DNA from: a virus
Length of the DNA stretch: 32,882 nt
Reading direction: 5' to 3' (one strand)
IMG/VR virus record: IMGVR_UViG_3300033172_000008
Shown here piece by piece: positions 1,665 through 32,717 of this stretch. The number at the start of each line of letters is the position of its first letter. Positions within the stretch are counted from its first letter, which is position 1. Made by a program: the position numbers and the translations under genes. The notes below the pieces were generated by a model, which ran no database searches, was not told the DNA's origin, and saw only the letters and a program-made list of their open reading frames with translations.

Positions 1665-1695
1665 CATATATCCAATTTAGACCAAAAAAGTTCAT
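1665..1695 (-). promoter_or_regulatory. Promoter-like element ATGAACT-N18-TATATG upstream of scaffold/capsid genes
   Basis: Minus strand reads ATGAACT tttttggtctaaattgga TATATG. It has the same architecture as five other sites in the genome. Confidence 0.5.
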
Positions 1696-1696
1696 T

Positions 1697-2179
1697 TTAT
1701 TCAATGTCTAAATTACGAGTCTCTTGAATCCATTTAACTAACTGCTTGTCCGTAGGGTACTTACCAGTCTCAAGCATGTAGTCATCAATAGCCGTTTCAA
1801 TTTGTGAATCGGTAAATGTTGATGGTATATCCGGGTTACTTCGGATGGCAGTCAGCATGGCTCCATTATCTGCATAGAGTCGGAAATTGTTACCCCAAAT
1901 TGGAGTGGGTTGAATAATTTCGCCACCATCAATCCTCGACATCAGGTCACCTCGAATAGCCCTACTAAATTCTTCAGCAACTTCTCTGGATTCGAAAAAT
2001 AACATGTTCATTCCATCATCTGCATACCTTGGAGGAGTGGCACTGACCTGTCCATCGCAGAAGGACTTAGCTCCACCTTTGGAATCCATAAGGTCATCAA
2101 TATCAACCACATCTCCAATGAGGTTTAAATTACGAAAGGATGTGTCGTTCGTAACTGGTTGCAAGTAAACACCATACAT
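1697..2179 (-). CDS. Hypothetical protein (head module)
   Basis: 160-aa ORF whose start/stop overlaps the upstream gene at 2179. No motif recognised. Confidence 0.6.
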   Translation of the reverse strand: MYGVYLQPVTNDTSFRNLNLIGDVVDIDDLMDSKGGAKSFCDGQVSATPPRYADDGMNMLFFESREVAEEFSRAIRGDLMSRIDGGEIIQPTPIWGNNFRLYADNGAMLTAIRSNPDIPSTFTDSQIETAIDDYMLETGKYPTDKQLVKWIQETRNLDIE

Positions 2180-2838
2180 TATTTAACCTTCCTCTGCTGG
2201 GCTATTGTGGCAACCATCTTGGGTCTACCTATTGCATATCTGCGTACATGTTCATACCAGCTATACCGACTGTTGCCGTAGGGGAAGCCAACTATGTGAG
2301 CATCCGGCGCAGTCATTCGTGCAAGGAAGAAGTCGAAGTCTTTACCCATTTGAATTGCCCCTATCAGTTCACGTTCCACTTGTCGGTAGTGTTTCTGGAA
2401 GTGGCCCTTCCATACATCAATTTCTTGGGTAATGGTAATTTCAATGATGGCTTTGTCCTCCTTAGTTAAATTAGACGGGATGGTTTTACCTTCAAGTTCC
2501 CCGTTGAGTTGAGCCAGTTCAATACCCTTCCGATAGAAGTCGTCGAAGTAATCGTATGTCCAGTCAGTAATTGCAGGGAGCAACATGTCCCTACTCTTCC
2601 GGGCCATCAAATTACACAGGGCTTGAATGTCATCCATGGGAGTAAGGGGACTGAGTACGCCCCCTTTGAATCGGAGTGTCTTATAGGCAATCTCGGGCAT
2701 GTCTTTGATAAACCAACGGTCATATGCCATCACAGCCTTGTACATCTTGTCTGCCTTGTAGTTAGGAAGATTGTAGTAGACATCTGAGAAGTCCTTGGCT
2801 AATTTAAGCATCTGACTGCGGTTTAATTTACTCTTCAT
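2179..2838 (-). CDS. Putative minor head / head-morphogenesis protein (position-based)
   Basis: 219-aa ORF overlapping the portal stop by 11 nt. It occupies the classical post-portal position. No catalytic motif recognised. Confidence 0.5.
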   Translation of the reverse strand: MKSKLNRSQMLKLAKDFSDVYYNLPNYKADKMYKAVMAYDRWFIKDMPEIAYKTLRFKGGVLSPLTPMDDIQALCNLMARKSRDMLLPAITDWTYDYFDDFYRKGIELAQLNGELEGKTIPSNLTKEDKAIIEITITQEIDVWKGHFQKHYRQVERELIGAIQMGKDFDFFLARMTAPDAHIVGFPYGNSRYSWYEHVRRYAIGRPKMVATIAQQRKVK

Positions 2839-4318
2839 TTATGCGGCTCCTAAGTTCTTCCAGCTTGGCCCGTTCCTGTATTTCACTTGTTCCGGTGTCC
2901 TCATTGATGCGCTTGATTTCCTCATCAACCATGTTGTCATCCCATGTAGGGTGAAGATGTTTGATGGCATCTCTCTGGCTACGAATTTTGCCCATGACTT
3001 CTCCGGTAAGGGTTTCAGCCACAACCTCTTGAGGAAAGCTGATAGGAGTAAAGTCAATGAAAGCGTTGTCCATAATCTTGTTGATTTCTCTGGGGTCAGG
3101 AGTAGGGTTTAATTTACCCGAGACATCACCATAATAAATCATCTTAGCCAGAAGCTCTTCCATCAGTTCAAGTTCTTGCGGTATAGCACAGTTCTCTTTC
3201 TCCGCTATAAGTTCTTTGGCAGGAGTCATCGCAATTTCAAATGCCCTACCTGAAGAGGCGTCTCCAAGTCCGGTGTTGTCACCCACGGAAACCGAAGGGA
3301 TTCTACTGGTTACATGAAGTTCCTGAATGAGCAGGTTGATGAATTCTTTAAGGTCAGTAATGGAGTGAGCGTTGTTTTCCAATCGCTTCACCCACACATC
3401 ACCATCTGGATTGGCGTTTGAATCAACGTGCCATACTGCACGGGGTTCGTAGGACCAATCAACTTTGCCCACTGCATTGGTTATGACCGGGTTGTGAAGA
3501 CCCCAAATCATAAGTTCTCGGCCATCCGTGAACAACTCATTAACAGACTCTAAGGTGTTAAGTAATGGAAGTATATCAGACTTACCCCATGCATTGAAGG
3601 GGTGGTCGAGACCTCTCCACCACACAGCACCCAGATAATCACCCAGAGGATTCAATCCCTCATAGGGGGTCTTAATTTCCTTGCCATCAACCTTCACATG
3701 GTATTCTCCGGGAACCATAATTTCCCCAGATTGAGAACGCTTGTGTCGGGTAATTTTCTCCTCGAACCTATGCACTGACTTCTTGGGGATGGTATTCAAT
3801 TCCATTACCCAATCTGGCAATTCCTCGGTCAAAATATCAAACACGATTCCATCTATGTGACCATAAGGGTCTTCAGGATTGAAAATTGGTATGACGTCAT
3901 TGAAGCCATAGAGGGCAAATTTATAATTGCCATCCCAAGTACGAATGATTCTTATTACCCCATATCCACAGAGGGAAGCAATCTTGGTCAGACGCATCAT
4001 GACTCCCCGAGCATTCGCATAGGTCTTCTTGATTCTCTCATCCAATTCCGGCACACCATAACTGCGGGTTACTTTCCTGCCATACAATAGAGTAGCAATT
4101 TTATCAACCAACAGTGATGTGAAAGCAATCGGAGTGAAGGCTTCAAGTCTGCCATTGTAAATTCGGTCTGACATCTTGGGTGGTCTGAGAGGGTCAGTTG
4201 TGTTGTCGTACAACTCTTTAAGTTTGATGATGATTTCCCCATGAATAGGAGATTCAGTGTTCACTAACCCCATCAGAGCTTGTGTAACTGTTTGTTCCGT
4301 TGTGTCTTTGTAAAGCAT
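2828..4318 (-). CDS. Portal protein
   Basis: 496 aa, immediately downstream of TerL, with RBS AGGAG 6 nt before the ATG. Size and position are typical of SPP1-type portals. Confidence 0.85.
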   Translation of the reverse strand: MLYKDTTEQTVTQALMGLVNTESPIHGEIIIKLKELYDNTTDPLRPPKMSDRIYNGRLEAFTPIAFTSLLVDKIATLLYGRKVTRSYGVPELDERIKKTYANARGVMMRLTKIASLCGYGVIRIIRTWDGNYKFALYGFNDVIPIFNPEDPYGHIDGIVFDILTEELPDWVMELNTIPKKSVHRFEEKITRHKRSQSGEIMVPGEYHVKVDGKEIKTPYEGLNPLGDYLGAVWWRGLDHPFNAWGKSDILPLLNTLESVNELFTDGRELMIWGLHNPVITNAVGKVDWSYEPRAVWHVDSNANPDGDVWVKRLENNAHSITDLKEFINLLIQELHVTSRIPSVSVGDNTGLGDASSGRAFEIAMTPAKELIAEKENCAIPQELELMEELLAKMIYYGDVSGKLNPTPDPREINKIMDNAFIDFTPISFPQEVVAETLTGEVMGKIRSQRDAIKHLHPTWDDNMVDEEIKRINEDTGTSEIQERAKLEELRSRINEE

Positions 4319-4333
4319 ATTAATCTCCTATTT

Positions 4334-5632
4334 CTATAGGCGTTCCATTGTGTTTCGGCCACTACTTCTTTGTAAATATTCAATCAAATATCGAATAGCA
4401 TCTGCCGGGTGGTCTAATATTCCATCCTTGACATATACTTCTTTCCCCCTCTCGAAGACCAAATTACGAAACATCTCAATGACCTTGGGGCAGTCTTCAG
4501 TAACGAATAGAGAAACCTCTCCCAACTCATTGAGTATTCTCGCTCTCATCAACTGTATACCCGTGACGATGCGGTATCTGCGAGTACTAACAGCATAACC
4601 CCTGTCCATCATCCAAGTAGATTCATTCAACTTAGAAACGAAAGAATGACCAGCATCCCTCCCTATGTCCCTGCGTTGATTTCCTGCCACGTCACTTATA
4701 ATAGCCGTATAACCCTGAGACGGTTCATTCTCGATTAATTTAGCCAACACTTGAGGGGTGCCTTGATGAGCCAGAATATGCTCCTTGTATATTACCATAT
4801 CGTCCGTGACCCTATTGTGGGCTACCCAAACCATAGCGCAGTATTGAGCATATCCGGGGTCAATCGTTAAGTAGACATCCCAAGTTTCGTCTAATTTGAA
4901 ATCCTTAAGGATGTGTTTATTGTCGTCGAAGTCCGGGAACACCTGACCCTCGAACACAACACAATTTGCCATGTACTCCTGTTGGAAGTAGATGGGGTCG
5001 GATTGTCTCTTGACCAACTCCCACTCATCCTCAGTCCACACATGGTAATTTTCATTGGATGGACCCTTGTGGCTCCACCAACCCCCCTCATGCTGTTGTC
5101 CCAATTCAAATTTCTTCCACACCCAGTTACGACCTCGGGGAGTGGAAATCATTATGACTGTACCCCTACGGTCTCTTATACATGGCGAAATGTACATTTC
5201 CCATATCTGTTCTGGCAGGGTTGCGGCTTCGTCTACAATCACCAAATCAAATCCATCACCCAGTAGGGAATCGGGGTTATCCGCTGACCCTAATTCGAGG
5301 GTTGAACCCCAAGCCGTTTCCATTCTCATTTCACCCTTAAGGATGCTGATGTCCGTGCCAAACAATTTAATAACATCTACCAATAGGTAACGCCAAAGCT
5401 TCTTGGCTAATTTGTATGTCTTGCTCACACATAGAATCTTACAGTCGGCTTCCATTAAGGCATAACAGGCCGGAATGGATGCAATCTTTGTCTTACCATA
5501 TCTACGACCCGCCAGCACACAGATGAAACGCTCGTTGCAGAACGCTTCGAGAATCTTGGCTTGACCCGGATGTGGGTGGAAATTAAGCTTCCGTATGAGG
5601 GCTTGCAGGGCTTTCTGGTTCTTCCGTAGCAT
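4334..5632 (-). CDS. terL: Terminase large subunit
   Basis: Walker A-like AGRRYGKT, Walker B plus catalytic Glu LVIVDEAA, and a C-terminal RNaseH-like nuclease segment (YLTIDPGY). 432 aa. Confidence 0.9.
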   Translation of the reverse strand: MLRKNQKALQALIRKLNFHPHPGQAKILEAFCNERFICVLAGRRYGKTKIASIPACYALMEADCKILCVSKTYKLAKKLWRYLLVDVIKLFGTDISILKGEMRMETAWGSTLELGSADNPDSLLGDGFDLVIVDEAATLPEQIWEMYISPCIRDRRGTVIMISTPRGRNWVWKKFELGQQHEGGWWSHKGPSNENYHVWTEDEWELVKRQSDPIYFQQEYMANCVVFEGQVFPDFDDNKHILKDFKLDETWDVYLTIDPGYAQYCAMVWVAHNRVTDDMVIYKEHILAHQGTPQVLAKLIENEPSQGYTAIISDVAGNQRRDIGRDAGHSFVSKLNESTWMMDRGYAVSTRRYRIVTGIQLMRARILNELGEVSLFVTEDCPKVIEMFRNLVFERGKEVYVKDGILDHPADAIRYLIEYLQRSSGRNTMERL

Positions 5633-6251: not shown

Positions 6252-7202
6252 TCAGACGACCCATTCAATTGTAACTCTCTGTAGTTTACTGAGGTCGGCT
6301 GAGTCCAATATTCTAATTCTACCTGTTCCTGTAGACGCTCCATCATATTTAGTTCCACTCGTGCCAGTTTCACCGTTGGCTTTGGCGATTACAAACTCAT
6401 CAGCGTCTAAACCTTCGACTGTTACGGTAATGTCAGCATCGGTTTGTTCTTTCCATGTGAGAACATCAATAGGTGTGGAATCAGATACAACACACTCGAC
6501 TCGATAGGTAATGGTTCCATCGTTGGTGTAAATTACAAAGTCACCTGTGTAAGTTCCTGCTGTTCCAGTATTTGTGAGATTGACAGTTACTTGACCACTT
6601 GCCCCGGATGCCAACGAAGTGGGGAATGCGGTGTAGGTAAACCCAGTAGGGGCAGTAACCCTATAGATATTCAAAGCAGTTGGTCCATCATTTTCAATTT
6701 GTATTGTACCGAATGAACTCTCCCCAACATATATGGTACCCAAATTTAGACCTATAACAGCTTCGGGCTCTCCGGCAATGAGGTTCTGTATCTCATATTC
6801 AAAAGTCTGTGAAACTGAATAGATATTACTCTCATCAGGCCCAGTGTATGTTTCGCCTACCCACATGGGGGTCCTACGAATAGAACCATAGAGGGTTGAC
6901 CTGAGTAAATTAGATTTGCTTAAATGACCATAGGAGAGCAAGGTTTCGTGGACGGAACCCATCTTGGCAGTACTGTCAAGGTTAATGGTGACATCCACCT
7001 GCATCTTATCAACATACGCACTTCCGGTTTCGTAAGTTAGGACATCATTCACTACAGATATATTCACCCATGAAGTCCCGGCATTTGCGGGTCTCCAAAA
7101 CTGATTCCCCGCTGGCACTATGTTGATGACTGTGGGGAAGCCAGATATGGACCCCAAATAGGTCTGCATGTTGGTCATCAAATCCCATTGTGGATTAGGC
7201 AC
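6252..7202 (-). CDS. Structural protein: tail-terminator-like N-domain fused to Ig-like C-terminal domain(s)
   Basis: 316 aa with a GTG start and GGAGG 5 nt upstream. The N-terminal ~140 aa resemble the tail-terminator/DUF4128-like pattern. The C-terminal Thr/Gly-rich beta-type segment (SGASGQVTVNLTNTGTAGTYTGDF) is typical of Ig-like/ASH-type domains. Confidence 0.55.
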   Translation of the reverse strand: MPNPQWDLMTNMQTYLGSISGFPTVINIVPAGNQFWRPANAGTSWVNISVVNDVLTYETGSAYVDKMQVDVTINLDSTAKMGSVHETLLSYGHLSKSNLLRSTLYGSIRRTPMWVGETYTGPDESNIYSVSQTFEYEIQNLIAGEPEAVIGLNLGTIYVGESSFGTIQIENDGPTALNIYRVTAPTGFTYTAFPTSLASGASGQVTVNLTNTGTAGTYTGDFVIYTNDGTITYRVECVVSDSTPIDVLTWKEQTDADITVTVEGLDADEFVIAKANGETGTSGTKYDGASTGTGRIRILDSADLSKLQRVTIEWVV

Positions 7203-7225: not shown

Positions 7226-7301
7226 TGGTGGAGATGGTGGCAATCGAAGCCACGACATCCTGCTTGCAAAACAGGTACTCTTCCAACTGAGTTACATCCC
7301 C
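7226..7301 (-). tRNA. tRNA-Ala (anticodon UGC), CCA encoded
   Basis: Hand-folded cloverleaf: acceptor GGGGATG/CATCTCC with a G3:U70 pair and A73; D arm ACTC-AGTTGGAA-GAGT; anticodon arm CCTGT-TTTGCAA-GCAGG; variable loop ATGTC; T arm GTGGC-TTCGATT-GCCAC; then ACCA. 76 nt. Confidence 0.88.
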
Positions 7302-7388: not shown

Positions 7389-8141
7389 TTATTCTTCCTT
7401 GTCTTCGTCTGTGGTCGTGTTAAGGTTCCATGGGTCTTCATCGTTGATTCGGTCAAGTAGTTCCGTCAAAGGACTCTTTTCTTTGTTAAATTGTATGGTA
7501 TCTACTTTACCGAAGTCATTAGGGAATCGTCGTTCCAAAATAAACATTGTGCTGCGCGCTCGGGCTGATTCATTGTTGCCCTCAATTGCCAATTTGTTCA
7601 GGTTGTCAATCATCTTCATCTTGTATTCATGTTCGGCCAAGTCAGCCATTTCCTGAAGTTCAGGTAATTTAGCCAAGGTTTTAATCAATGTTTCATGCTT
7701 GCATTTGATGGCTCGGGTTACGTCTCTCATGCGTCCACCATTACTTAGTACCTCCACCATTGTAGGTACCCACTTACGATAGTTGTATGCTAAATTAAAC
7801 ATGTTTAAATTACCCGTTTTAATACCCATTAATTTGTTAAGGTATATTCTCCTATTGTAATCTTTCAGATTCATGGTAGGCTCTTTCAACCATTTCCATT
7901 CCAAATATCTGTATTCATCCTGAAGGTCAATCAATTTGTCCCGACCTAATTTATCATAGTTACGTAACCAAGCTTTCTTACTCCACCGAATAGTGCCCTT
8001 GATTATATTGACATCTTCCATAGGGATTGCCCACGGACCTTCTAAAGCAATACCTATCCACTCGATGCAACCCATTTGGTCGGGATTTTTACCATAGTGT
8101 ACAGCCGGGTCTTCTTCACATTCAAATCTCTTAATTTCCAT
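7389..8141 (-). CDS. Putative small terminase subunit / DNA-binding protein
   Basis: 250 aa. The C-terminal half has an HTH-like stretch (GGRMRDVTRAIKCKHETLIKTL) and the FILERRFPNDFGK motif common near the C-terminus of small terminases. Strong RBS GGAGG. Confidence 0.45.
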   Translation of the reverse strand: MEIKRFECEEDPAVHYGKNPDQMGCIEWIGIALEGPWAIPMEDVNIIKGTIRWSKKAWLRNYDKLGRDKLIDLQDEYRYLEWKWLKEPTMNLKDYNRRIYLNKLMGIKTGNLNMFNLAYNYRKWVPTMVEVLSNGGRMRDVTRAIKCKHETLIKTLAKLPELQEMADLAEHEYKMKMIDNLNKLAIEGNNESARARSTMFILERRFPNDFGKVDTIQFNKEKSPLTELLDRINDEDPWNLNTTTDEDKEE

Positions 8142-8199: not shown

Positions 8200-8239
8200 G
8201 TAAATTAGACCTCAAGGTTTAATTTGAGGTCTAATTTAC
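8200..8239. repeat. Perfect 16-bp inverted repeat carrying the genome-wide AAATTAGACC word
   Basis: GTAAATTAGACCTCAA (8200-8215), loop ggtttaat, TTGAGGTCTAATTTAC (8224-8239). It abuts the -35 of the 8167-8197 promoter. Confidence 0.9.
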
Positions 8240-8262: not shown

Positions 8263-8559
8263 TTATGAGCCTTTCACTTTTGCAATGTCAAATATCAAGT
8301 TGGGTGTGGGGAGATTACCAATAGGTAACCGATGCAAAGTGTAGGCCAATTTGCCAAAAAACACTTTAGCATGCCATTGAGCCGCAGATAAATTAGCCTC
8401 AGCCACTACAGGACTGGCACCCCTACCTCTACCTACTACTGGTTTCCAAGCTGACCCTACTAATTTACATAGGGTGAATCGAGGATTGCCATCACTGTCG
8501 GAAAGTAAAATTAGACCAAAGATGTCTTTGGCGGTGATTGCGAACTGTCTGTATTCCAT
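8263..8559 (-). CDS. Hypothetical protein
   Basis: 98-aa ORF in an operon context. No motif recognised. Confidence 0.5.
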   Translation of the reverse strand: MEYRQFAITAKDIFGLILLSDSDGNPRFTLCKLVGSAWKPVVGRGRGASPVVAEANLSAAQWHAKVFFGKLAYTLHRLPIGNLPTPNLIFDIAKVKGS

Positions 8560-8570
8560 ATCCAGTCTCC

Positions 8571-9104
8571 TTAAATTAGGTTTTCTCTAAGCATGTCATG
8601 AGTCACAGCCGGTATATAGTCTTCCGTTGTCAATTTACACCAACCCAAGGCACTCAACCAATCCTTGTTAATCAATACAAATTTAGAGCTGAAGTAGTCC
8701 CCTCCACTATTGAACTCATATGTCTCACTTGATGGATTCTTTTCGGTAAGTATTTGATGCATAAGGTCTTTCATCTTCCATGTAGAATAAATTGCACAGG
8801 TCTTCATGATGTGGATAGTGACATCAGCCCTACTCTTCATAATGCCTGAACTCTTGCCATTCATTTCATATTCCACGCAGATGTAATTTGAATCTTCATA
8901 TTTGAATTCCCTCTTCAATTCCACTGACACAATAGGACTTACCCATCCTTCATCGTGCTTGTATTGCATGGCCCAATCATATCTGCTTCGTCTGTCCCCG
9001 TCCAGAATTGACCAACCAAAAATTTTAAACGCTTGTACCGTAAGCTTTTGGATTGCTTGACCCCTTGCAAAATCTTCTCCGAATGTCTTGAATAGGTTAG
9101 CCAT
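8571..9104 (-). CDS. Hypothetical protein, possible PD-(D/E)xK nuclease fold
   Basis: Start trimmed to the ATG at 9104, 2 nt after the sigma stop. D...E-x-K-like pattern (ILDGD ... VSVELKRE). The functional call is weak. Confidence 0.5.
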   Translation of the reverse strand: MANLFKTFGEDFARGQAIQKLTVQAFKIFGWSILDGDRRSRYDWAMQYKHDEGWVSPIVSVELKREFKYEDSNYICVEYEMNGKSSGIMKSRADVTIHIMKTCAIYSTWKMKDLMHQILTEKNPSSETYEFNSGGDYFSSKFVLINKDWLSALGWCKLTTEDYIPAVTHDMLRENLI

Positions 9105-9106
9105 GA

Positions 9107-9571
9107 TTAGTTGTTCCTTTCTATAAGCTCTTGAATGCCATAGTGTATTCGCGATTTCACGGTTCCAAGAGGCAAATCCAACATGGTGGCAATGTCCTGT
9201 AGGGAATAACCCTGAGACCAAGGCACTATGACGGCTCTCTTTTTCTCATCCAACTGTGCAACGAGCTTATTGTATATCATATAATTCTGTACATCTATTT
9301 CGTTGCCAGAATCCTCTTGAAATACTTCCGGTAAGGAAACCTCCACCCCCGCCTTTCGATTGATTCTGGCCCAGTTATTCTTCATTAAAATAAAGAGCCA
9401 ACCGAAGAACTTACCTCTCTCCGGTTGATATTGTGATTCATATTGCAAAGCCCTCAACACACACTCGCCAACCAAATCAGATGCATCCTCCGAGTTACCG
9501 TTGGTTATGTTCATTGCAATTTGGAGCAGTCGGTCATAGCCAACTTCAATTTCTTCTCGAAGGGTCATCAT
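9107..9571 (-). CDS. ECF-type (group IV) sigma-70 family sigma factor
   Basis: 154 aa with only a region-2-like N-domain and a region-4 HTH (YSLQDIATMLDLPLGTVKSRIHYG). Size and two-domain layout are typical of ECF sigmas. Confidence 0.8.
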   Translation of the reverse strand: MMTLREEIEVGYDRLLQIAMNITNGNSEDASDLVGECVLRALQYESQYQPERGKFFGWLFILMKNNWARINRKAGVEVSLPEVFQEDSGNEIDVQNYMIYNKLVAQLDEKKRAVIVPWSQGYSLQDIATMLDLPLGTVKSRIHYGIQELIERNN

Positions 9572-9573
9572 GA

Positions 9574-10266
9574 TTAGACCTCCTCAGGGGTTTCCACAAA
9601 GTTAATGTGGGAGTAACGCTGTTTCAACCACTCTTCATATGGAGTCATTTCGGGGTGATTGTATCTAACGGAATATTCGACCATCATCTGTGTGAGTTCT
9701 TCCTGCATACGGTCAATTTTGTCACATATAACCTTACGAGCATCAGCATCATGTTGAGCCTGTAGGAGTAGTAGGTCTAATTTACTCTGTAGAGATGTGG
9801 TCTCTTCTTTAATGTCCTTGAAGATTTTATCCATTCCATCTTCATCTTCTTCTAAAGAGGACAACATATCCAAGGTGGTTACTACTTTGGTCCAATCCTC
9901 ATTGAGCATGAGGAGGTAAAGATAAATCAACTGGGTTCTGTGGGCCGCAATGGTTCTACGCCCTATTGAGTTGTTGTACATAGTTTCAAATAAACCTAAA
10001 TCGGACAGAGTAATAAGGCCATTATCTACCATTACACCATTACCAACCAACTTAACATTTAATTCTTCGGAATTAAGGAAGGCATTTACCAGCATCAGGG
10101 TGTTCTCTTGCTCTAACCGGGTAAGCAATGCATCTTCGAGTTCATCCACCAACGCAATGGTCTCAAACTCAATGTCAATTCTGTCTGTCTTTTCCATAGG
10201 TGTTACTCCATTTTCTGTTTTGTGTTCACTGTTAAAGGTTTCTTGTTCCATCATCTGCTTCTTCAT
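9574..10266 (-). CDS. Acidic hypothetical protein, first gene of the leftward operon
   Basis: 230 aa, strongly Asp/Glu-rich. RBS AAAGGAG. Its stop lies 2 nt before the sigma start. Confidence 0.65.
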   Translation of the reverse strand: MKKQMMEQETFNSEHKTENGVTPMEKTDRIDIEFETIALVDELEDALLTRLEQENTLMLVNAFLNSEELNVKLVGNGVMVDNGLITLSDLGLFETMYNNSIGRRTIAAHRTQLIYLYLLMLNEDWTKVVTTLDMLSSLEEDEDGMDKIFKDIKEETTSLQSKLDLLLLQAQHDADARKVICDKIDRMQEELTQMMVEYSVRYNHPEMTPYEEWLKQRYSHINFVETPEEV

Positions 10267-10518
10267 AATCAGGCTCCTTTGGGTTAATATTTCTCGGTCA
10301 CATATATCTATATCATTTCAAAACTTTTTGGTGACGATTTCGGGGTCTCTTCTTCAAACCAGTTTCAACATTTTCGTCTCTCTATACTCTATATCAAAAT
10401 TTGAACGAGGGGTGCCATATTTGAGGTGTCCTACTTAAACAACAAACGAAACAGAGAAAATGTTTATGTCCCCACACCTATATAACAAGGTAGTAGGGGT
10501 GAAATATTCCGGGGTAAT

Positions 10519-10538
10519 TTAGACCTCTGTGAACCTTG
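10519..10538 (+). repeat. 20-mer TTAGACCTCTGTGAACCTTG, copy 1
   Basis: Identical to 10658-10677. Followed by a second CTGTGAACC at 10542-10550. Confidence 0.9.
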
Positions 10539-10657
10539 TATCTGTGAACCCATCTACTTCAAACCGGGTGGAGTGAAGCAATGTGGTCACAATCTGAAGA
10601 GACCTCGGAACCCTCGGAGATGTGCAACAAATAGTAGTCTATATATGTGGCATCAAA

Positions 10658-10677
10658 TTAGACCTCTGTGAACCTTG
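10658..10677 (+). repeat. 20-mer TTAGACCTCTGTGAACCTTG, copy 2
   Basis: Identical to 10519-10538. Confidence 0.9.
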
Positions 10678-10716
10678 GGGGAGATGCAAGAGAAATAGGG
10701 TCAAATTTCTTACCGC

Positions 10717-10732
10717 TGTGAAAAGATTCACA
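10717..10732. promoter_or_regulatory. CRP/FNR-type palindrome TGTGA-N6-TCACA
   Basis: TGTGAAAAGATTCACA, a perfect match to both half-sites. Confidence 0.5.
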
Positions 10733-10868
10733 AGGAAAATCAAACACTTGTTTGAAAGTTCGTTTCATAAGAATGAGGTGTAATTTGTAAGTTGTTGGGG
10801 CCGTATATAACTATAATTTGAAACCTCGACATATAGTATTATTAAGCTACTACACAGAGATTGAGTGT

Positions 10869-10884
10869 TGTGAAACAATTCACA
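10869..10884. promoter_or_regulatory. CRP/FNR-type palindrome TGTGA-N6-TCACA
   Basis: TGTGAAACAATTCACA, a perfect match to both half-sites. Confidence 0.5.
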
Positions 10885-11434
10885 GAGTTTACCCCCATTT
10901 GTATTGACATAGGTGAATCAATAATAGGACAAATTAGACCGAGCTGGCCCTATCTGGCTCTTGATTATAACGCCTTTAGGCGTTGAGAACCCTATGGTCT
11001 TTTGCGACCGAAGGGAGCCCTCTTCATAGGAGGTTCACATAGAGTAAATTACACCTCACTTGCCTTCGCCTACGGCTCGGCTGGAAATAGGGTAAAGTTA
11101 TATTAAACATATAACATTTGGGGTCTGGAATCCACTCATTCTTCTTCATAGGGTAATGGGAGGGGAAACCCCCATAGGGTCAGTTTCATGACCTTTCAAT
11201 GTTGTATTTACATTCATTACATTTTCATCTTCATTACTCCATTCTATCTTCATCTTGATTTATGGGAGACCCCGAAAGGGATTCTTGGTGGAGGTGCCGT
11301 ATTAACACTATACTTAAATGTATTTAAGGGTATTAGTATATATTCGGGGTGTGGAAGTTGTTGGTACCTATGGAGAAAAAAGAGGTGACCATAGACTAAT
11401 GACCTATGTGAAATTTGCATACTGGTCAAGTTGG

Positions 11435-11452
11435 TGTTGTCAGATAGTATAT
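11435..11452 (+). repeat. 18-mer TGTTGTCAGATAGTATAT (copy A)
   Basis: 17/18 identical to 11480-11497. A third TGTTGTCA lies at 11527-11534. Spacing is 45-47 bp. Confidence 0.85.
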
Positions 11453-11479
11453 GCCCTATAGATTGTCACGCAATGTGAG

Positions 11480-11497
11480 TGTTGTCAAATAGTATAT
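11480..11497 (+). repeat. 18-mer TGTTGTCAAATAGTATAT (copy B)
   Basis: 17/18 identical to 11435-11452. TTGTCA-N17-GATTAT is a possible sigma70-like promoter. Confidence 0.85.
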
Positions 11498-11516
11498 AGG
11501 GGTAGATTATTACACA

Positions 11517-11547
11517 ATGAACTTTTTGTTGTCATCTGGTCTATTAT
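11517..11547 (+). promoter_or_regulatory. Promoter-like element ATGAACT-N18-TATTAT upstream of the rightward operon
   Basis: ATGAACT ttttgttgtcatctggtc TATTAT. The -10 ends 24 nt before the ATG at 11572. Confidence 0.55.
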
Positions 11548-11571
11548 AGGGTGTAAACAGAAAGGTGTCCT

Positions 11572-11970
11572 ATGAAATATGAAATTCACTCTGATGATGT
11601 ACTCCGGACTTTGGCTCACAAAATGGTCTCCGAATTAACCGAGATGTCCTATTCCATAAACTACATTCGGAAGTTGATGACGTGGGGTGGTCTAATTTAC
11701 GCCACAGAACTTTTAGGTGATGACAGACTGGGTGAATTCAAGGAGGTGTGGTTCCAATTCCTGAATCGTTGGACGGATGAATACCACATAGATATATACT
11801 GTAGGCTGAAGAAACTTGGCAGGGTCCGCTCCTACTCGGATGCAAGTGACTACTTCGATTTCCTGCCTAATTTTGACCAAGCATTGTTTGCCCTATCGGA
11901 GCTAATTCAAGGGGAGACTTCGTTTTGCAGGTGGAGGAATAGCCTACTTGACAATAGAAAGAAAAAGTAG
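11572..11970 (+). CDS. Hypothetical protein (first rightward gene)
   Basis: 132-aa ORF with RBS AAAGG. No motif recognised. Confidence 0.6.
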   Translation: MKYEIHSDDVLRTLAHKMVSELTEMSYSINYIRKLMTWGGLIYATELLGDDRLGEFKEVWFQFLNRWTDEYHIDIYCRLKKLGRVRSYSDASDYFDFLPNFDQALFALSELIQGETSFCRWRNSLLDNRKKK

Positions 11971-11986
11971 TATAGTCTCCCTGTCC

Positions 11987-12039
11987 AAATCGTCATGGGA
12001 GACCCTCGATTTTGATATAGAGAATAGTAACCGAGATTT
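11987..12039 (+). repeat. 53-bp upstream element R1 (50/53 identical to R2)
   Basis: AAATCGTCATGGGAGACCCTCGATTTTGATATAGAG... It ends exactly 26 nt before the ATG at 12066. Confidence 0.9.
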
Positions 12040-12065
12040 TTTAAACTGAAACGAAAGGATTCAAT

Positions 12066-13719: not shown

Positions 13720-13938
13720 ATGTTGTACAAAGAAACATCTGAAAATGGCATGAGTAAAATACAGTTCAATTTGTCCATGTATTTGCCTGACCCTATTCGG
13801 CTTGGGCTGATAGATGGGGACGTTGAAGCTCGGGTTCACTTTCACAGGGTCGGGGCTAATGTCCACGCCCTGTTGGATTTGGCTCTCGAACAAATTGAGA
13901 GTAATACAATTGTTCCTATCGAAGACACCATGGATTAA
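13720..13938 (+). CDS. Hypothetical protein
   Basis: 72 aa from the ATG at 13720, with AAAGGA 9 nt upstream. The longer track ORF overlaps the preceding gene. Confidence 0.5.
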   Translation: MLYKETSENGMSKIQFNLSMYLPDPIRLGLIDGDVEARVHFHRVGANVHALLDLALEQIESNTIVPIEDTMD

Positions 13939-18192: not shown

Positions 18193-18221
18193 TTGACATG
18201 TGGTCTATGGTGTGTTATATT
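18193..18221 (+). promoter_or_regulatory. Near-consensus sigma70 promoter (TTGACA-N17-TATATT with TGn extension)
   Basis: TTGACA at 18193-18198, a 17-nt spacer ending in TGT, and TATATT at 18216-18221. It lies 40 nt upstream of the lipoprotein ATG. Confidence 0.7.
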
Positions 18222-27934: not shown

Positions 27935-28420
27935 TTATTCCAAAATTTTGCGTATCAAGTACGCTTCGATTTCTTTACGTATTAATTTGATGTTTGCTTC
28001 GGAAAAACCCGTTATGATGTTCTTCCACTTATCTGCCGCCACCTGAGCTATTGTCCTATTACGGTCACCCTTAGGTCCAACCTTAACACTGGTGTCAGTA
28101 ATTTCAGCTGCATAGGATTTCCTCAATTCTTCAGTGTCAGTCAATCTTATCTTGTCTGATGTTACCTTTTCACCGGATGGTCTGGTGTTATACTTCTTGG
28201 ACCACCTGCCCCCAAATTTAGTTTCCTCTGCATTGGATTTCCATTTGTGCCCATTGGCATCACTGCCTGTGGCGAAACGAAGTGCGACGAAATTTAACAT
28301 CATCTTTTCAATTTGCTTTATGACACCCTCTCGGATGTCCTTGCTATCAAAAGTCTTCTGAACTTTCTTCAGTGACTTAGGTAGGTCTCGGAAATTAATA
28401 GCTGGTAGTGAGGTAGCCAT
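27935..28420 (-). CDS. Head-tail joining / tail-completion protein (HK97 gp10 / Mu G-like pattern)
   Basis: 161 aa. RFATGSDANGHKWK...LTDTEELRKS resembles the virion-morphogenesis family pattern. Confidence 0.55.
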   Translation of the reverse strand: MATSLPAINFRDLPKSLKKVQKTFDSKDIREGVIKQIEKMMLNFVALRFATGSDANGHKWKSNAEETKFGGRWSKKYNTRPSGEKVTSDKIRLTDTEELRKSYAAEITDTSVKVGPKGDRNRTIAQVAADKWKNIITGFSEANIKLIRKEIEAYLIRKILE

Positions 28421-29178
28421 TACCTCTCCAAAAAGGTTGTGTATCCAGCAACTCGTCTGGACTTGGAATCTCTTTCAGGGTAACAACTAATTTGCCATTG
28501 CTGGCCTACTTTATAGGAGTCAATGTATTTGTAGAGGAATCTAATTTCAACACCAAAGCTGAGAGGTATGAAGTTCCAGTCACATTTGACATTCTCTCTA
28601 TACCATCCTTCATCCTCGTCCGTCTTCCAGCGAAAAGTGGAGGTTGCTAAATTAGACCCTACTGTTTGAAGTTCAATGGTGAAGATTCGGGGGTACAGGT
28701 CTTCGGTGTAGTAGCAACCCGGCACTCCATAGTTGGATTCAATCCACTCCGAATTTGGAGTAATGGCCTCTGTTCCAGTCCCTACGGTAAGGGCAGTAGG
28801 CATACCAATTCCAATTTGTCCCACAGTCGGTTCAGGGTCAATTCGTCTGCGCCCTGATTTGAAATCTTCAAGAATGCCCTCGGCATCGGTATGGAAGACT
28901 GTCCAGTAACCTTCGGCTCCCTCTTTGTTTGCCAGCATCCTCCGAGACAACGCCAGATATACGGCTTCACTTGCCGTGGCTAAACGAATAAAGAAGTTGG
29001 GGGAGGTGCCAGTGGCAGGTAGGGACAATGATGGAGTAGGGTTGAACTCACAGATGGATGTATACACCCACTCGGAAGCTTGTTCCAGAATGGAATCCAA
29101 TATGGCTCCACTGGCTAAAGCGGAAAAGTCTTCGTAAAGCACCTCACAATCTGTGATGCCAATGAATTTTCTCGCCAT
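28420..29178 (-). CDS. Head-tail adaptor-like protein with C-terminal extension
   Basis: 252 aa. The N-terminus (ITDCEVLYEDF...LEQASEWV) resembles gp6-type connector proteins. First gene after the GT cassette. Confidence 0.5.
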   Translation of the reverse strand: MARKFIGITDCEVLYEDFSALASGAILDSILEQASEWVYTSICEFNPTPSLSLPATGTSPNFFIRLATASEAVYLALSRRMLANKEGAEGYWTVFHTDAEGILEDFKSGRRRIDPEPTVGQIGIGMPTALTVGTGTEAITPNSEWIESNYGVPGCYYTEDLYPRIFTIELQTVGSNLATSTFRWKTDEDEGWYRENVKCDWNFIPLSFGVEIRFLYKYIDSYKVGQQWQISCYPERDSKSRRVAGYTTFLER

Positions 29179-29191: not shown

Positions 29192-29887
29192 TTAAATGTT
29201 TTCTAAGATGGTTTTTATTAGGGATGTATACTTACGGTGAAAAGTCTGTTGGTCTAATTTGAACGTAAGCTCATCACGTTTCTTCTCTTCACTTATAAAT
29301 ATACAATTCTCCGTGAAAAGGTTCATCTTCTCCGGGGCAAAGAACCCAAGACCATGGTCAAGACCTACTTCAAACCCAGCCCAACGACATCTCAGAGTAT
29401 AATCAGTGAGAATGAAGAACTCCTTCAAGGCTGTGTCGAACTGACCCACATCCAATAAGGCTCGATAGGGTACTGAAATCATGTTGTGGTCAAAACAATT
29501 TACAGGTCTTATGGCATCACTCTGGTGGTAACCACTGGCATACTTGATGATGGGGAATCCTGATTGAATTTCGGCTGTCAATTCCACGGACTGATTAACC
29601 CTATCCATGAGGGTAGGGGAAATTACCATATCTTGATTCAACTGTTCAACATGTCTCTCGAAATCGAAGCAAGCAGTGTTGGGAATGAACCCAGCCCTGA
29701 CCACCATGAGGTTGGCCTTTTCGTCCAGACAAATTTCCCTACACAAGTTAAAGGCATCAGACATTTTACCGCTATAGGCAAGGATGTTCAACATGTCTTC
29801 AGATACTATTTCCTTCATGGCTTCAAAGGTCTGATTGGCCTTTTCATCCTCGATGGAATTCTTGATGATGAATATTTTAGTGTGCAT
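29192..29887 (-). CDS. GT-A/GT2-like glycosyltransferase (divergent)
   Basis: 231 aa from the ATG at 29887, which overlaps the GT9 stop. The C-terminal segment YRALLDVGQFD...TDYTLRCRWAGFEV matches the usual GT2 C-terminal pattern. Confidence 0.45.
   Translation of the reverse strand: MHTKIFIIKNSIEDEKANQTFEAMKEIVSEDMLNILAYSGKMSDAFNLCREICLDEKANLMVVRAGFIPNTACFDFERHVEQLNQDMVISPTLMDRVNQSVELTAEIQSGFPIIKYASGYHQSDAIRPVNCFDHNMISVPYRALLDVGQFDTALKEFFILTDYTLRCRWAGFEVGLDHGLGFFAPEKMNLFTENCIFISEEKKRDELTFKLDQQTFHRKYTSLIKTILENI
29296..29326 (-). promoter_or_regulatory. Weaker intragenic ATGAACC-N18-TATTTA element upstream of the connector/tail genes
   Basis: Minus strand reads ATGAACC ttttcacggagaattgta TATTTA. 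It lies 117 nt upstream of the ATG at 29178. Confidence 0.3.
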
Positions 29888-31133
29888 CAGTCTCACCTTT
29901 CAACCAACTGTAATTTGCGGTTAAGACATCCACTAAATCAATGGACGCTGTGCAATAGGGTATTTCCATCCTAAGGGATTCTAATTTCTGGAAAGCATTA
30001 TTTACCTTCGCATTAAGGGTGGCCTCCGATGTACACTTAAAATAGGTGATTGGGTCTTTGGTAGGGAGAGGCTTCACAGGAGGAAGTCCAGCTTGCGCCC
30101 TAACCATGGGTTCCATAGGGAGCATCTCCAACAACTGTCTTTCCTCAGGGTCTAATTTAGACCAAGCTTCAACCTGCTTACGAGGACAGTCCCTTGTAAT
30201 TTGGTAGCACTTACATACCTGATTACCCAATGTAACTTGCGAATCTACGGTGATTTCATATCGGTAATACTTGGATATGGTGTGTGCCGGGACAAAGGTG
30301 TAATAGGTTATGTGTCTTATGCCCAGAGCTTCAGCCAAGTGAGACACTCCGGTATCGGCAGTAATGGCAAATTGGCACTGTTCCAGCAGAGCCGCAGTAG
30401 CCCTAATAGGTTTGATTTCCTTGGGGATTTCAATTTTCATCCCATTGATGGTCAAGAAACCACCACCTTGAGGTCTCTCTTGAGTGGGAACTTCCTGATT
30501 CCAAAGTAGAATACTGTGTCCCTTTTCAATGAGGAATCTGCTTATACCTAAGGGGGAGATGGTCTTAGCTGCACTGGAAGATGTGGTCTGGATAAACACA
30601 GGCTTGGTTCTGCACTTACTCAATATGGATTTAGCCCAAGCTCTTTCCTCTTCCCTCACGAAATAGTTGGGTCTCTTCTCATCATCCGACATGGTGTAAG
30701 GGTTAATTCCAGCCCAATTTAGATGGTTGTCATAGGTGTTGATGTAAGTGGAATTCTGAGTAGGACTAATTTCCGGGTGCTGAGTGTTTGCCTCGATGAC
30801 GCGGAAGTAGTTCGCGACATTAAAGGGTCGCCAAGGTCGGTTTAATTTAGTTTTATAGAGTCGGTACAATGCCATGTCAGCAATGTATACACCTTGATAG
30901 TCAACCAAATTAATGGGATGTCCATTAACATCAGCTTTGTATGTGCCGAATCTTGAACTTAAGTAGATGTGCTTGATGTAAGGGTTGTTCTCCAACACAG
31001 GCAAGCCCATGTCATTTACCACTACATCAACCTGATAGCCTAATTCAGTCAGCTTCTTTGCCACTGGGGTGAGGAATAAAGCATCGCCTATTCCACCATA
31101 TCGAAGCAGTAGGAACCTTTCTTTGGAAGCCAT
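29877..31133 (-). CDS. GT9-family heptosyltransferase-like glycosyltransferase with Cys-rich C-terminal extension
   Basis: 418 aa. N-terminal LLLRYGGIGDALFLTPVAKKL and TADTGVSHLAEALGI are the hallmark GT9 (WaaC/WaaF-type) motifs. There is an extra CKCYQITRDC cluster. Confidence 0.75.
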   Translation of the reverse strand: MASKERFLLLRYGGIGDALFLTPVAKKLTELGYQVDVVVNDMGLPVLENNPYIKHIYLSSRFGTYKADVNGHPINLVDYQGVYIADMALYRLYKTKLNRPWRPFNVANYFRVIEANTQHPEISPTQNSTYINTYDNHLNWAGINPYTMSDDEKRPNYFVREEERAWAKSILSKCRTKPVFIQTTSSSAAKTISPLGISRFLIEKGHSILLWNQEVPTQERPQGGGFLTINGMKIEIPKEIKPIRATAALLEQCQFAITADTGVSHLAEALGIRHITYYTFVPAHTISKYYRYEITVDSQVTLGNQVCKCYQITRDCPRKQVEAWSKLDPEERQLLEMLPMEPMVRAQAGLPPVKPLPTKDPITYFKCTSEATLNAKVNNAFQKLESLRMEIPYCTASIDLVDVLTANYSWLKGETDAH

Positions 31134-31867
31134 TATATTTCTCCTTTTTCTCTTTGACTAATCAAGGTTTGGACACTCTTGTCTCGATGAACTCCGGGAC
31201 CGTAGCACATACCATCCCTCATGGTTGCACTCTTACGGTCTGATTCTTTGGTCTTACGATGTTCCATGTACATTTCTTCATTAAGGTAAGCCCATGGAGC
31301 TAAAGGATTTGGGTGTCTGTGGGGGACATTCTCGAATACCAACACCGGACCCAAAGCAATTCTAAATTGCCAATCCCTACCCAGAGGGTCATCCGGGGAT
31401 TTGTATAGGTCTACAATTTCCTCAGCATCCCAGAAGTTCTTGCGGTGAATCATCAATGCTCTAACATCAAAGGTGCGAAGCATTTCGTTGGCCTTCTTAT
31501 TCACCTTGCGGAAAATAGGTTCACTCACAAACTCATCAACATCAATCCTGAACAACCACTCCTGAGGTCTAATTTGATACAGCATGTTGTAGTGTGGCTC
31601 ACCCAACCGTTCAAATCTTTCCATGGAGATGTAATTTACATTCTTATAGGAACGAGCAATCTCTTGCGTTCTATCTGTGGATGCTTGGTCTATCAGATAA
31701 ATTTTTGCATATTTATGAAATTCAAGCCAAGCAGGTAGGCGTTCTTCCTCGTTGTAAACCACAATCCCAATGCTCATGGGGAATTCTTTTAACACATTGT
31801 TTTTGACCGTGGACTGCTTGGTAGCAGGTATTTTGGGTCTTCCTTTTTTATTGGACTTAGTAGACAT
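31133..31867 (-). CDS. GT2-family glycosyltransferase
   Basis: 244 aa from the ATG at 31867, with GGGAG 5 nt upstream. Motifs SIGIVVYNEEERL, LIDQASTDRTQEIA and RIDVDEF (DxD). Confidence 0.7.
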   Translation of the reverse strand: MSTKSNKKGRPKIPATKQSTVKNNVLKEFPMSIGIVVYNEEERLPAWLEFHKYAKIYLIDQASTDRTQEIARSYKNVNYISMERFERLGEPHYNMLYQIRPQEWLFRIDVDEFVSEPIFRKVNKKANEMLRTFDVRALMIHRKNFWDAEEIVDLYKSPDDPLGRDWQFRIALGPVLVFENVPHRHPNPLAPWAYLNEEMYMEHRKTKESDRKSATMRDGMCYGPGVHRDKSVQTLISQREKGEI

Positions 31868-31916
31868 AAACACTCCCTCGTGTTGTATTCAAAAACCATG
31901 AATGAACTGTCACTCT

Positions 31917-31947
31917 ATAATAGTCAAAACCGACCTGATAGGTTCAT
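31917..31947 (-). promoter_or_regulatory. Promoter-like element ATGAACC-N18-TATTAT upstream of the GT cassette
   Basis: Minus strand reads ATGAACC tatcaggtcggttttgac TATTAT. Its -35 overlaps the HNH-2 stop codon. Confidence 0.5.
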
Positions 31948-32642
31948 TTTCTTTTGTGTTCTTCTCGATGACATTTCCTACATAGGGTGAGTCCATTGTT
32001 AGTGTCCCACAATTCCTTACATGCTTCAGCCTCTTCAAGGGTTTGAATATTGTGTTCATTCATGATGACAGAAAAGAATTTAATATGATGGGCAATTAAT
32101 TTTCCCCCTCGGGTCTGGCAATGCTGACAAGTATAATGGTCTCTCTCAAAAACTAATTTCCTCCACTCCCGATACTGAATACACTTTCTCACCGTTTCGT
32201 TTAAAGAGGTAACCCCACCCTTCCAATTACTGTTATTTGAACCCTTGTGAGTTTCAGATAACCGTTGTTTATTAAAACAACCACAGGATTGTGTGTGTCC
32301 ATTTTTTAAACTTCCGGCTTGAACTTTTATTTTCTTTCCGCACTCACATAGACATAGCCATAATACTCCACCATTTTGTCGGCCTACATCTTCCAATACC
32401 ACAAGCCGCCCAAATTTCTGTCCCACAATATTCTGATAACTTAAATTAGACGCAGTATCAACACTCAAACAACCACAAGACTTTGTATGTCCACACCTAA
32501 GTTTAGTGGAGGGTATAACAACACTATTGCCACACTCACATTGACATAACCACAATCTTGTTCTTTGCTTATTTCGACCTACATCTTCCAGTGCGGTCAA
32601 CCTGCCAAATTTCTGTCCCGTTAAATCAATTTTCATGAACAT
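31944..32642 (-). CDS. HNH endonuclease with two tandem zinc-ribbon repeats (HNH-2)
   Basis: 232 aa (the start may be the ATG at 32636). It has the same repeat and HNH core as 15149-16054, and the C-terminal ~100 aa are very similar. Confidence 0.9.
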   Translation of the reverse strand: MFMKIDLTGQKFGRLTALEDVGRNKQRTRLWLCQCECGNSVVIPSTKLRCGHTKSCGCLSVDTASNLSYQNIVGQKFGRLVVLEDVGRQNGGVLWLCLCECGKKIKVQAGSLKNGHTQSCGCFNKQRLSETHKGSNNSNWKGGVTSLNETVRKCIQYREWRKLVFERDHYTCQHCQTRGGKLIAHHIKFFSVIMNEHNIQTLEEAEACKELWDTNNGLTLCRKCHREEHKRK

Positions 32643-32686
32643 AAATCCCTATTCCAGATATAGTTGACGTATGAATCATACATTAT

Positions 32687-32717
32687 ATAATAGTCAAAAA
32701 GACCTTTAGGAGTTCAT
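32687..32717 (-). promoter_or_regulatory. Promoter-like element ATGAACT-N18-TATTAT upstream of HNH-2
   Basis: Minus strand reads ATGAACT cctaaaggtctttttgac TATTAT. It shares the 14-mer TTTTGACTATTATA with the 31917-31947 element. Confidence 0.5.

Follow-up and report, generated by a model that had tools for sequence, protein, structure and literature searches.

Candidate promoters for a phage-encoded ECF-type sigma factor in the genome of a small uncultured tailed phage

Seven elements of the form ATGAACY-N18-TATWW were present in the 32,882-nucleotide stretch of viral DNA filed as IMG/VR record IMGVR_UViG_3300033172_000008 (the whole of which is called the window here), and these elements are probably promoters used specifically by RNA polymerase together with a sigma factor of the phage itself, a protein of the extracytoplasmic function (ECF) type encoded in the same DNA. 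The coordinates, strands and 18-nt spacer given for six of them in an earlier note, made from the sequence alone, were all reproduced (Table 1): five were exact matches to the pattern, and the copy described as weaker, P29326, was present with one mismatch (TATTTA). The claim of the same note that other ATGAAC copies lacked a TAT box at this distance failed for the site at 4698..4728, an exact match inside the gene for the terminase large subunit (TerL) which had been overlooked.

Six matches to ATGAACY-N18-TATWWK were found in the whole window, against 0.07 expected from dinucleotide-preserving shuffles. The relaxed cores TGAAC-N19-TATWW and TGAAC-N16-G-NN-TAT returned seven matches each (0.41 and 0.39 expected, respectively), in both cases the same seven sites and nothing else, and no further site was gained in the window when the spacer after TGAAC was widened to 18-20 nt. 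The ATGAACY pattern had been picked after viewing the sequence, and an unbiased dyad search over 12 upstream regions was therefore run. The single best dyad of this search, ATGAAC-N19-TAT, was common to 5 regions, whereas the top dyad was common to 2 regions in 255, to 3 regions in 44 and to 4 regions in one of 300 dinucleotide-preserving shuffles.

The spacing was identical and TGAAC invariant in all seven copies, and every copy was oriented with the local gene-sense strand. Five of the seven sites were in non-coding DNA, which makes up 7.9% of the genome. A G was invariant 3 nt 5' of TAT (16 nt from AAC, TAT itself being 19 nt from AAC), preceded directly by T in 5/7 sites, and the base just 5' of TAT was C or A in all seven; P29326 fitted the relaxed cores, including TG-N-A before TAT. 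An A directly followed the hexamer in five of the six exact sites, and the DNA 5' of the ATGAAC box was A/T-rich. The spacers were unrelated in sequence among the sites, which are therefore not copies of one another.

Table 1. Positions of the candidate promoters, the sigma factor gene and associated features in the window (aa, amino acids; TerS, terminase small subunit).
Feature	Position (strand)	Sequence or composition	Context	Close relative
P8197	8167..8197 (-)	ATGAACT-N18-TATAAT, exact match	25 nt 5' of TerS-like gene (7389-8141); first copy of the motif downstream of the sigma operon	3 spacer changes, boxes kept
P1695	1665..1695 (-)	ATGAACT-N18-TATATG, exact match	62 nt 5' of scaffold-like gene (ATG at 1602), followed by major head protein gene (18-998)	identical
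P32717	32687..32717 (-)	ATGAACT-N18-TATTAT, exact match	44 nt 5' of HNH gene (31944-32642)	3 spacer changes, no box change
P31947	31917..31947 (-)	ATGAACC-N18-TATTAT, exact match	overlaps HNH stop codon; 49 nt 5' of glycosyltransferase gene (ATG at 31867) and connector/tail block	2 spacer changes, no box change
P11517	11517..11547 (+)	ATGAACT-N18-TATTAT, exact match	24 nt 5' of first rightward gene (11572-11970)	2 spacer changes, no box change, 16-nt insertion in leader
P29326, candidate internal promoter	29296..29326 (-)	ATGAACC-N18-TATTTA, one mismatch	inside gene 29192-29896; 117 nt 5' of gene 28420-29178	identical
Candidate internal promoter	4698..4728 (-)	ATGAACC-N18-TATTAT, exact match	inside TerL gene (4334-5632); 379 nt 5' of portal gene	one synonymous change, at first spacer base
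Hairpin	8202..8237 (-)	perfect 15-bp hairpin, two inverted AAATTAGACC copies	ends 4 nt 5' of the P8197 -35 box	
Intrinsic terminator (terminator scan)	32727..32751 (-)	9-bp stem with 8 G-C pairs, then T run	3' of major head protein gene; 9 nt before P32717	kept
TTGACA-type promoter	18193..18221 (+)	TTGACA-N17-(TGt)TATATT, 11/12 consensus match	5' of gene 18261-18689	boxes kept, 4/17 spacer bases changed
TTGACA-type promoter	11948..11976 (+)	TTGACA-N17-TATAGT, 11/12 consensus match	5' of gene 12066-12542	boxes kept, 2 spacer bases changed
ECF-type sigma gene, proposed motif reader	9107..9571 (-)	154 aa; regions 2 and 4 only (no 1.1, 1.2 or 3)		
Sigma operon	8263..10266 (-)	9574-10266 (230 aa, acidic), sigma gene, 8571-9104 (177 aa), 8263-8559 (98 aa)		

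Relatives of the phage were scarce. When 25 kb was compared by megablast with 50,697 phage records, no match was obtained, and searches with TerL in IMG/VR and the JGI metagenomes returned only proteins 25-27% identical. The sole close relative was one 33.5-kb Logan contig (L024 and L025), with 78-92% nucleotide identity and some gene replacements, and all seven sites persisted in it. Over the five intergenic sites, none of 65 box positions and 10 of 90 spacer positions had changed (Fisher p=0.005). The aligned 1.3-kb non-coding region differed at 11.6% of positions, which was taken as background divergence and would predict about 7.5 substitutions in the boxes; the spacers therefore evolve at the background rate and the boxes more slowly. 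P29326 was also unchanged, but it is coding sequence, and its conservation is uninformative. The promoter-like character claimed in the earlier note was thus borne out by the invariant boxes and drifting spacers, by hexamers ending 24-62 nt before the first start codon of the gene blocks, and by a terminator and a hairpin 5' of two of the elements; the hairpin before P8197 may act as a terminator or insulator.

Least probable of the explanations considered is that the elements are no promoters at all and represent a bipartite site for a regulator (a repressor or packaging factor) or a sequence copied among intergenic regions. Other motifs are over-represented in this phage, namely AAWTTAGACC and a GTTGTCA-N5-TAT repeat overlapping P11517, which would suit such a reading. 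Against it, all copies are oriented with the genes downstream, at promoter-like distances from start codons, the unrelated spacers exclude mutual copying, only the two boxes are constrained, and the first box fits the DNA-reading helix of the encoded sigma. Separately, ATGAAC was considered as the start codon of small open reading frames (ORFs) and rejected, the frames stopping after 2-12 codons and not being conserved (by eye). Rfam yielded no RNA family at the promoters or in the 1.3-kb non-coding region, its only match being a tRNA.

A second class of promoters was present, as had been proposed earlier: the two TTGACA-N17 sequences of Table 1 showed the same footprint of kept boxes and changed spacers, so that the host primary sigma evidently uses the standard consensus. 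It is quite improbable that the seven ATGAACY elements are themselves ordinary promoters of the host primary sigma, with a weak -35 (TGAACT, 3/6 matches to TTGACA at 18-nt spacing) and a strong -10, the phage sigma having other targets or none. Their -10 hexamers are good, TGAACY with an 18-nt spacer is within sigma70-type reach, and one copy heads the rightward, early-looking operon. However, ATGAAC and the spacer were invariant in 7/7 sites and the box never varied toward TTGACA, whereas primary -35 boxes drift around their consensus and tolerate 16-18 nt; the genuine TTGACA promoters formed a separate class; and the absence of any substitution from the boxes, as well as the absence of the motif 5' of the sigma operon, also disagree with this explanation. 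Matches to the sigma70 consensus were not enriched genome-wide (38 against 44 expected; 25 against 32 expected), and a scan with the primary-sigma consensus recovered none of the seven sites.

The second box had been described as housekeeping-like, a description that suits the look of the TATAAT and TATTAT hexamers but should be softened. The form TAnnnT was found in 5/7 sites (TATAAT once, TATTAT four times), but P1695 (TATATG) and P29326 (TATTTA) had a base other than T where sigma70 needs T(-7), both of them kept in the relative, and the conserved TG was one base too far 5' for an extended -10. These details bear on an unlikely, though not negligible, alternative in which recognition is split, the host primary sigma reading the -10 and a phage protein at ATGAACY, either the ECF-like protein through region 4 or another early protein, replacing the -35 contact, as in T4 MotA/AsiA or Ltr/RinA. 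The near-perfect primary-sigma -10 elements of most sites favour it, as does the evident use of TTGACA/TATAAT promoters by the host, and Ltr activators with a sigma region-4-like domain are encoded upstream of terS in many phages (PMC3753634). However, the phage protein has, besides region 4, a complete region 2, with scores exceeding the Pfam and TIGR02937 cut-offs; Ltr proteins bind direct repeats in front of one terS promoter only, whereas here each of seven places had one box, not repeated, at a fixed 18 nt, and P8197 lacked the direct repeats of the box expected of an Ltr site. The conserved G at T(-7) of P1695, the candidate promoter for the capsid genes and thus for the most abundant virion proteins, the A of P29326 and the misplaced TG also disagree with a primary-sigma -10, and a distant relative (L050, below) keeps TGAAC without a TATAAT-like second box.

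The phage sigma, as the candidate reader of the elements, was well supported as a member of the ECF group, in agreement with its earlier assignment. Pfam matches to Sigma70_r2 (residues 12-72) and Sigma70_r4/r4_2 (residues 102-149) were all above cut-offs, TIGR02937 (sigma70-ECF) scored 54 bits against a cut-off of 42.9, the best NCBIfam model was SigY, and the best PDB sequence matches were all ECF sigmas (SigE and SigL of Mycobacterium tuberculosis (Mtb), and SigW of B. subtilis).

The strongest argument for a reading of the first box by this protein is the fit between predicted contact residues and bases. For region 4.2 of E. coli sigmaE on GGAACTT, the partner of C(-31) is R171 (R or K in other ECF sigmas) and A(-33) is contacted by F175 (F or H); position 172 is S where base -34 is G and T where it is A, and R176 reads G(-35) (Lane & Darst 2006, PMC1540707). 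The phage helix GTVKSRIHYG aligned with K, S, H and Y at positions 171, 172, 175 and 176; the sigmaE sequence was typed in for this alignment, and its numbering reproduced the residues of that paper. Such residues predict xGAAC without a 5' G, and TGAAC was observed. The Mtb SigL helix, GTVKSRLHYA, was almost the same, Tyr included, and the SigL consensus is TGAACC at -35 and CGTGTC at -10 (PMC2703886); ECF17 also uses TGAAC (PMC9194655). The view that an AAC-containing -35 is of ECF type was thereby upheld.

The second box can be written G-N-(C/A)-TAT-W-W and contains no CGT; its spacing is ECF-compatible within about 1 nt and its sequence is not canonical. By distance from AAC, the phage G would be within one base of the conserved G of sigmaE and SigW promoters. 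SigmaE promoters have the form GGAACTT-16-TCAAA with a -10 motif yGGTCAAAA (PMC1312014), and the -10 consensus of SigL is T-G-N-(C/A)-A-G (PMC6372665); the conserved T-G-N-(C/A) before TAT resembles the latter and the G-rich start of the former, a likeness that also speaks against recognition by the primary sigma.

A full HMMER scan revealed a family of sigma proteins of 145-185 aa, 34-50% identical to that of the window and sharing the N-terminus LTLREExEAGY. The contigs encoding them had the tail-gene order of the window (in L048 and L050 the head-gene order too) and G+C contents of 36-59%. Judged by these features, they belong to a phage group with its own sigma, a previously undescribed family of minimal sigma factors. 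The sigma gene stood before the packaging genes in the window and L050, and closed the early operon, behind the lysis amidase, in L042, L043, L049 and L053; one family member had been deposited under the name of a Nanoarchaeota metagenome-assembled genome, probably a binning artefact. The breadth in G+C content of these syntenic phages indicates that the family is no recent capture from one host, which bears on another, very unlikely possibility: that a host ECF sigma of SigL/SigY-like specificity reads the motif, the phage protein being a captured copy that has diverged or acts only as a supplement. A TGAAC -35 is known from cellular ECF sigmas (SigL, ECF17), and SigY was the best NCBIfam model, as this would suggest. 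However, the family is phage-specific, with a distinctive size and N-terminus, reliance on a stress-induced host sigma would be fragile for nearly all the phage genes, and the second box, being of TAT type, does not resemble the -10 elements known for cellular ECF sigmas.

A motif search in related phages, a check proposed with the original observation, showed recurrence of TGAAC beyond the close relative in the distant L050 (SRR26541470_16261). The L050 sigma is 37% identical, with R, S, H and Y in the helix, and its gene order is that of the window (sigma, TerL, portal, two genes, gap, scaffold, capsid). The dyad TTGAACAA-N15-TGTTTT occurred in both real gaps downstream of this sigma (5404-5432 and 13879-13907; 2 against 0.01 expected). 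The second TTGAACAA site was in the gap orthologous to that of P1695, and none was upstream of the L050 sigma, whose operon is headed by a host-type TTGCCT-N17-TATACT (read by eye). Here too, then, the S/H/Y helix is accompanied by TGAAC; the second box is a different one, which a divergent region 2 would lead one to expect. In L040 (JAPOGY010000805.1), where the residues are K, S, H and Y, one ATGAACT was found about 70 nt 5' of the first gene of an operon, with a G 3 nt before a TA-rich hexamer. In L048, no GAAC motif was seen in the gap preceding the scaffold gene or in that following the capsid gene, and the known contigs with R176 sigmas (P0082, P0083) were all shorter than 2 kb. Dyad counts over whole loci of the relatives were too noisy for use, and two scans of genome collections, for an extension of L040 and for prophages or hosts, gave no match.

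A bolder reading of the second box is tentative and on the whole doubtful: the phage sigma may read a hybrid promoter, an ECF -35 (TGAAC) joined to a primary-sigma-like TATAAT -10 with A(-11)-type melting, and a phage-specific family of minimal sigmas may run nearly the whole transcription of widespread small tailed phages, the -10 varying (TAT here, TGTTTT in L050) and the -35 constant as TGAAC.

Several observations weigh against recognition of the elements by the phage sigma. The TATAAT/TATTAT second box resembles a primary-sigma -10 and not the CGT or GTC typical of ECF promoters, and no residue code linking region 2 of the phage sigma to TAT could be derived. If the T of TAT is counted as -12, AAC is one base further upstream than in sigmaE/SigW promoters; if the -10 starts at the conserved TG, it is about 3 bases closer. 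The specificity residues His54 and Asp60 of SigL are not conserved in the phage sigma, whose region-2 loop (QYESQYQPERGKFFGW) also differs. In L040 there is just one site, which could occur by chance with a probability of about 0.02-0.05. The loci with A, S, D or G at position 176 of the sigma (L049, L043/46/48, L042, L053) offered no case of strict covariation with the first -35 base, most of them lacking the late promoter regions and the remainder showing no clear motif. Cellular sigma homologues from a word-indexed search gave no informative promoter motif. These were Bacteroidota ECF sigmas with upstream TAnnTTTG-type elements, the usual Bacteroidota promoter, and no GAAC motif; they had been selected by a shared word, LDLPLGTVKSRI, and both a transfer of their motif and a Bacteroidota host were therefore rejected.

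The sigma operon raises further points of the same kind. ECF sigmas typically autoregulate and have a co-transcribed anti-sigma, although this is not universal. The three partner genes had no family matches in profile scans and encoded neither an HxxxCxxC zinc anti-sigma motif nor a transmembrane segment; a novel anti-sigma among them is possible. As had been claimed, window scans found neither ATGAACY nor TGAAC-N19-TAT 5' of the operon, and hence no sign of autoregulation, an absence which would fit a one-way developmental switch. No convincing conserved sigma70-type (TTGACA/TATAAT) promoter was found 5' of the operon either, only weak non-conserved candidates. In terms of the proposed sigma cascade, the motif stands before the late blocks and not before the sigma operon, and the first step is conjectural. 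The best lead on control of the operon is an element of about 32 nt (TGATATAGAnAnAnTnACCGAGA...) at 10284-10315(-), 10382-10400(-) and 12009-12044(+), kept in the relative and located just 5' of the ribosome-binding sites of the first sigma-operon gene and of gene 12066; its role may be that of a shared operator, of a part of the leader or of an early promoter of unusual type.

With these points taken into account, transcription from the elements by the phage sigma is still preferred, and the following order of events is proposed. Host RNA polymerase would transcribe the sigma operon, and the sigma would bind the host core, its region 4.2 helix (K-S-R-I-H-Y, sigmaE positions 171-176) reading TGAAC as the -35, the step for which the residue fit offers partial evidence. 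Region 2 would read and melt G-N-(C/A)-TAT at a fixed distance, and transcription would start a few bases downstream, in an A-N-R-R-T-G stretch. The packaging and head block (P8197), the scaffold and capsid genes (P1695), the HNH gene (P32717), the glycosyltransferase, connector and tail genes (P31947, with P29326 as a possible booster) and the rightward operon (P11517) would thereby be switched on, while genes 12066 and 18261 would keep promoters of the TTGACA-N17-TATAAT type for the host primary sigma. We infer in this scheme that the phage sigma is both necessary and sufficient, as well as the temporal order and initiation at the elements themselves.

Bases 1-127 were an identical direct repeat of 32756-32882, so the assembly is circular or terminally redundant, with a unit genome of 32,755 bp. 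Because of this repeat, the major head protein gene runs straight into the terminator and then P32717, and a 56-aa ORF at 32706-32876 is merely the C-terminal end of that gene. On the minus strand the order was sigma operon, P8197, TerS-like gene, tRNA-Ala, TerL (with the internal site 4728), portal, P1695, scaffold-like gene, major head protein, terminator, P32717, HNH, P31947, two glycosyltransferases, connector genes (with the internal site 29326) and tail genes down to 18756. The plus strand was one operon (11572->18689) with P11517 at its head. Shine-Dalgarno sequences were seen at about 32 of 41 genes. Two mechanically assigned starts were too long: the glycosyltransferase gene begins at ATG 31867 (31133-31867; the product has 244 aa, like that of the relative), and the scaffold-like gene (1018-1602, -) at ATG 1602, behind a GGAG ribosome-binding site.

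Other features were noted beside individual promoters. In the leader between P1695 and the scaffold-like gene (1625-1660, -), a hairpin GAGGTAAA-GGTG-TTTACCTC was followed a few bases later by TTTTT (by eye); such a stem-loop could stabilise the 5' end of the transcript or act as an attenuator. GTTGTCA-N5/6-TAT was present as three direct repeats (11428-11452, 11473-11497 and 11520-11544), 45-47 nt apart and with the third inside the P11517 spacer, which suggests an operator array regulating the rightward promoter. AAWTTAGACC was over-represented, with 34 matches at no more than one mismatch against 3.45 expected, and AAATTAGAC was the commonest 9-mer. Its 23 exact sites (e.g. 1675, 8203/8236, 10517, 10656, 18140/18146 and 30149/30155) were spread over both strands and over genes and non-coding DNA alike; some formed perfect palindromes (GGTCTAAATTAGACC at 18140-18154 and 30149-30163), and some were within or beside promoters (the P1695 spacer and the hairpin before P8197). 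The relative had 21 copies in 27.9 kb. These copies were not significantly better conserved than their flanks (6/180 against 83/1398 positions changed, p=0.17), and the motif was rejected as a real promoter on that ground and for its presence on both strands without orientation bias; it could be a phage-protein binding site or an uptake/Chi-like signal.

Between the divergent operons, the 1.3 kb of non-coding DNA at 10267-11571 contained no convincing ORF, was about 88% identical in the relative and was rich in short hairpins and repeats, e.g. AATTTAGACCTCTGTGAACCTTG twice and GGGGAAACCCCC; L040 has a comparable gap of 1.5 kb. A replication origin, regulatory RNAs or operator clusters could be located there. 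A tRNA-Ala (anticodon TGC) at 7226-7301 (-) was found between the TerS-like and DUF1573-domain genes. The DUF1573/Ig-like gene (6252-7202, -), in the TerS-TerL interval, was replaced in L024 (12267-14809) by two unrelated genes of 242 and 556 aa, and an HNH gene at 15149-16054 was missing from the relative; both are mosaic cargo positions.

If the proposal is true, the sequence of an uncultured phage yields a complete and testable transcription map, in which an early sigma operon is joined by seven promoters for its sigma and two of host type. The ECF -35 code (S172-G, H/F175-A, K/R171-C) would be extended to a Tyr176-T pairing in SigL and the phage sigma, the compact pair of a 154-aa sigma and a 31-bp promoter could be used as an orthogonal expression switch, and a mini-sigma family would be flagged in related phages, whose promoters should be predictable likewise. 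The principle is unsurprising, but the prediction is sharp, can be tested at little cost and gives access to a family of phage mini-sigmas yet to be characterised.

Among cellular systems, Mtb SigL is similar in its near-identical region-4.2 helix, with Tyr for Arg176, in its -35 TGAAC(C/T) and in T-G-N-(C/A) at the -10. It differs in that overall identity is low (E=1e-8) and that the second box of the phage has TAT, at another distance; moreover, SigL is a cellular stress sigma controlled by an anti-sigma, whereas the phage sigma would be developmental and has no visible anti-sigma. The promoters of E. coli sigmaE (GGAACTT-N16-TCAAA) share the A/T-rich upstream DNA, the xGAAC(T) -35, a spacer close to 16 nt, a G directly preceding the -10 and the A/T-rich melted segment, and the code for positions 171, 172 and 175 holds for both; the first -35 base of the phage is T and not G (Y and not R at 176), and its -10 is TAT-type and not GTC.

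T4 middle promoters combine a phage-specific upstream box with a TATAAT-like -10, in which they resemble the elements described here. The MotA box, however, has its centre at about -30, no more than 11-13 nt away from the -10, and no homologue of MotA or AsiA was detected among the window proteins scanned. In the Ltr superfamily of Gram-positive siphophages (RinA, ArpU, LtrA/B/C), a small sigma-related regulator is likewise encoded shortly 5' of terS, with a dependent promoter adjoining terS (PMC3753634). The sigma similarity of Ltr proteins goes no further than a region-4-like domain, their binding sites are direct repeats and only one late operon is under their control, whereas regions 2 and 4, a dyad of -35/-10 type and at least five transcription units are involved here.

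In its working the system would be like the phage sigma cascades. SPO1 gp28 and gp33-34 and T4 gp55 follow the same principle. In phiEco32 (gp36) and Salmonella phage 7-11, as proposed here, a phage sigma redirects the host core to a few conserved middle and late promoters, early genes being host-type, and, as a rule, a phage sigma has only a few promoters, which are strongly conserved (PMC4331800). Those two phages also encode an inhibitor of host RNA polymerase ("anti-sigma factor") and have phage promoters before the sigma gene too (PMC4331800), whereas no motif precedes the sigma operon here. All of these phages differ from the present one in sigma family and motif, this being a small 32.8-kb phage with a bipartite ECF-like promoter. 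The system is best filed under the known phage-encoded sigmas with cognate promoters, here in a new phage group and with an ECF-type -35 of SigL specificity and an unusual second box containing TAT.

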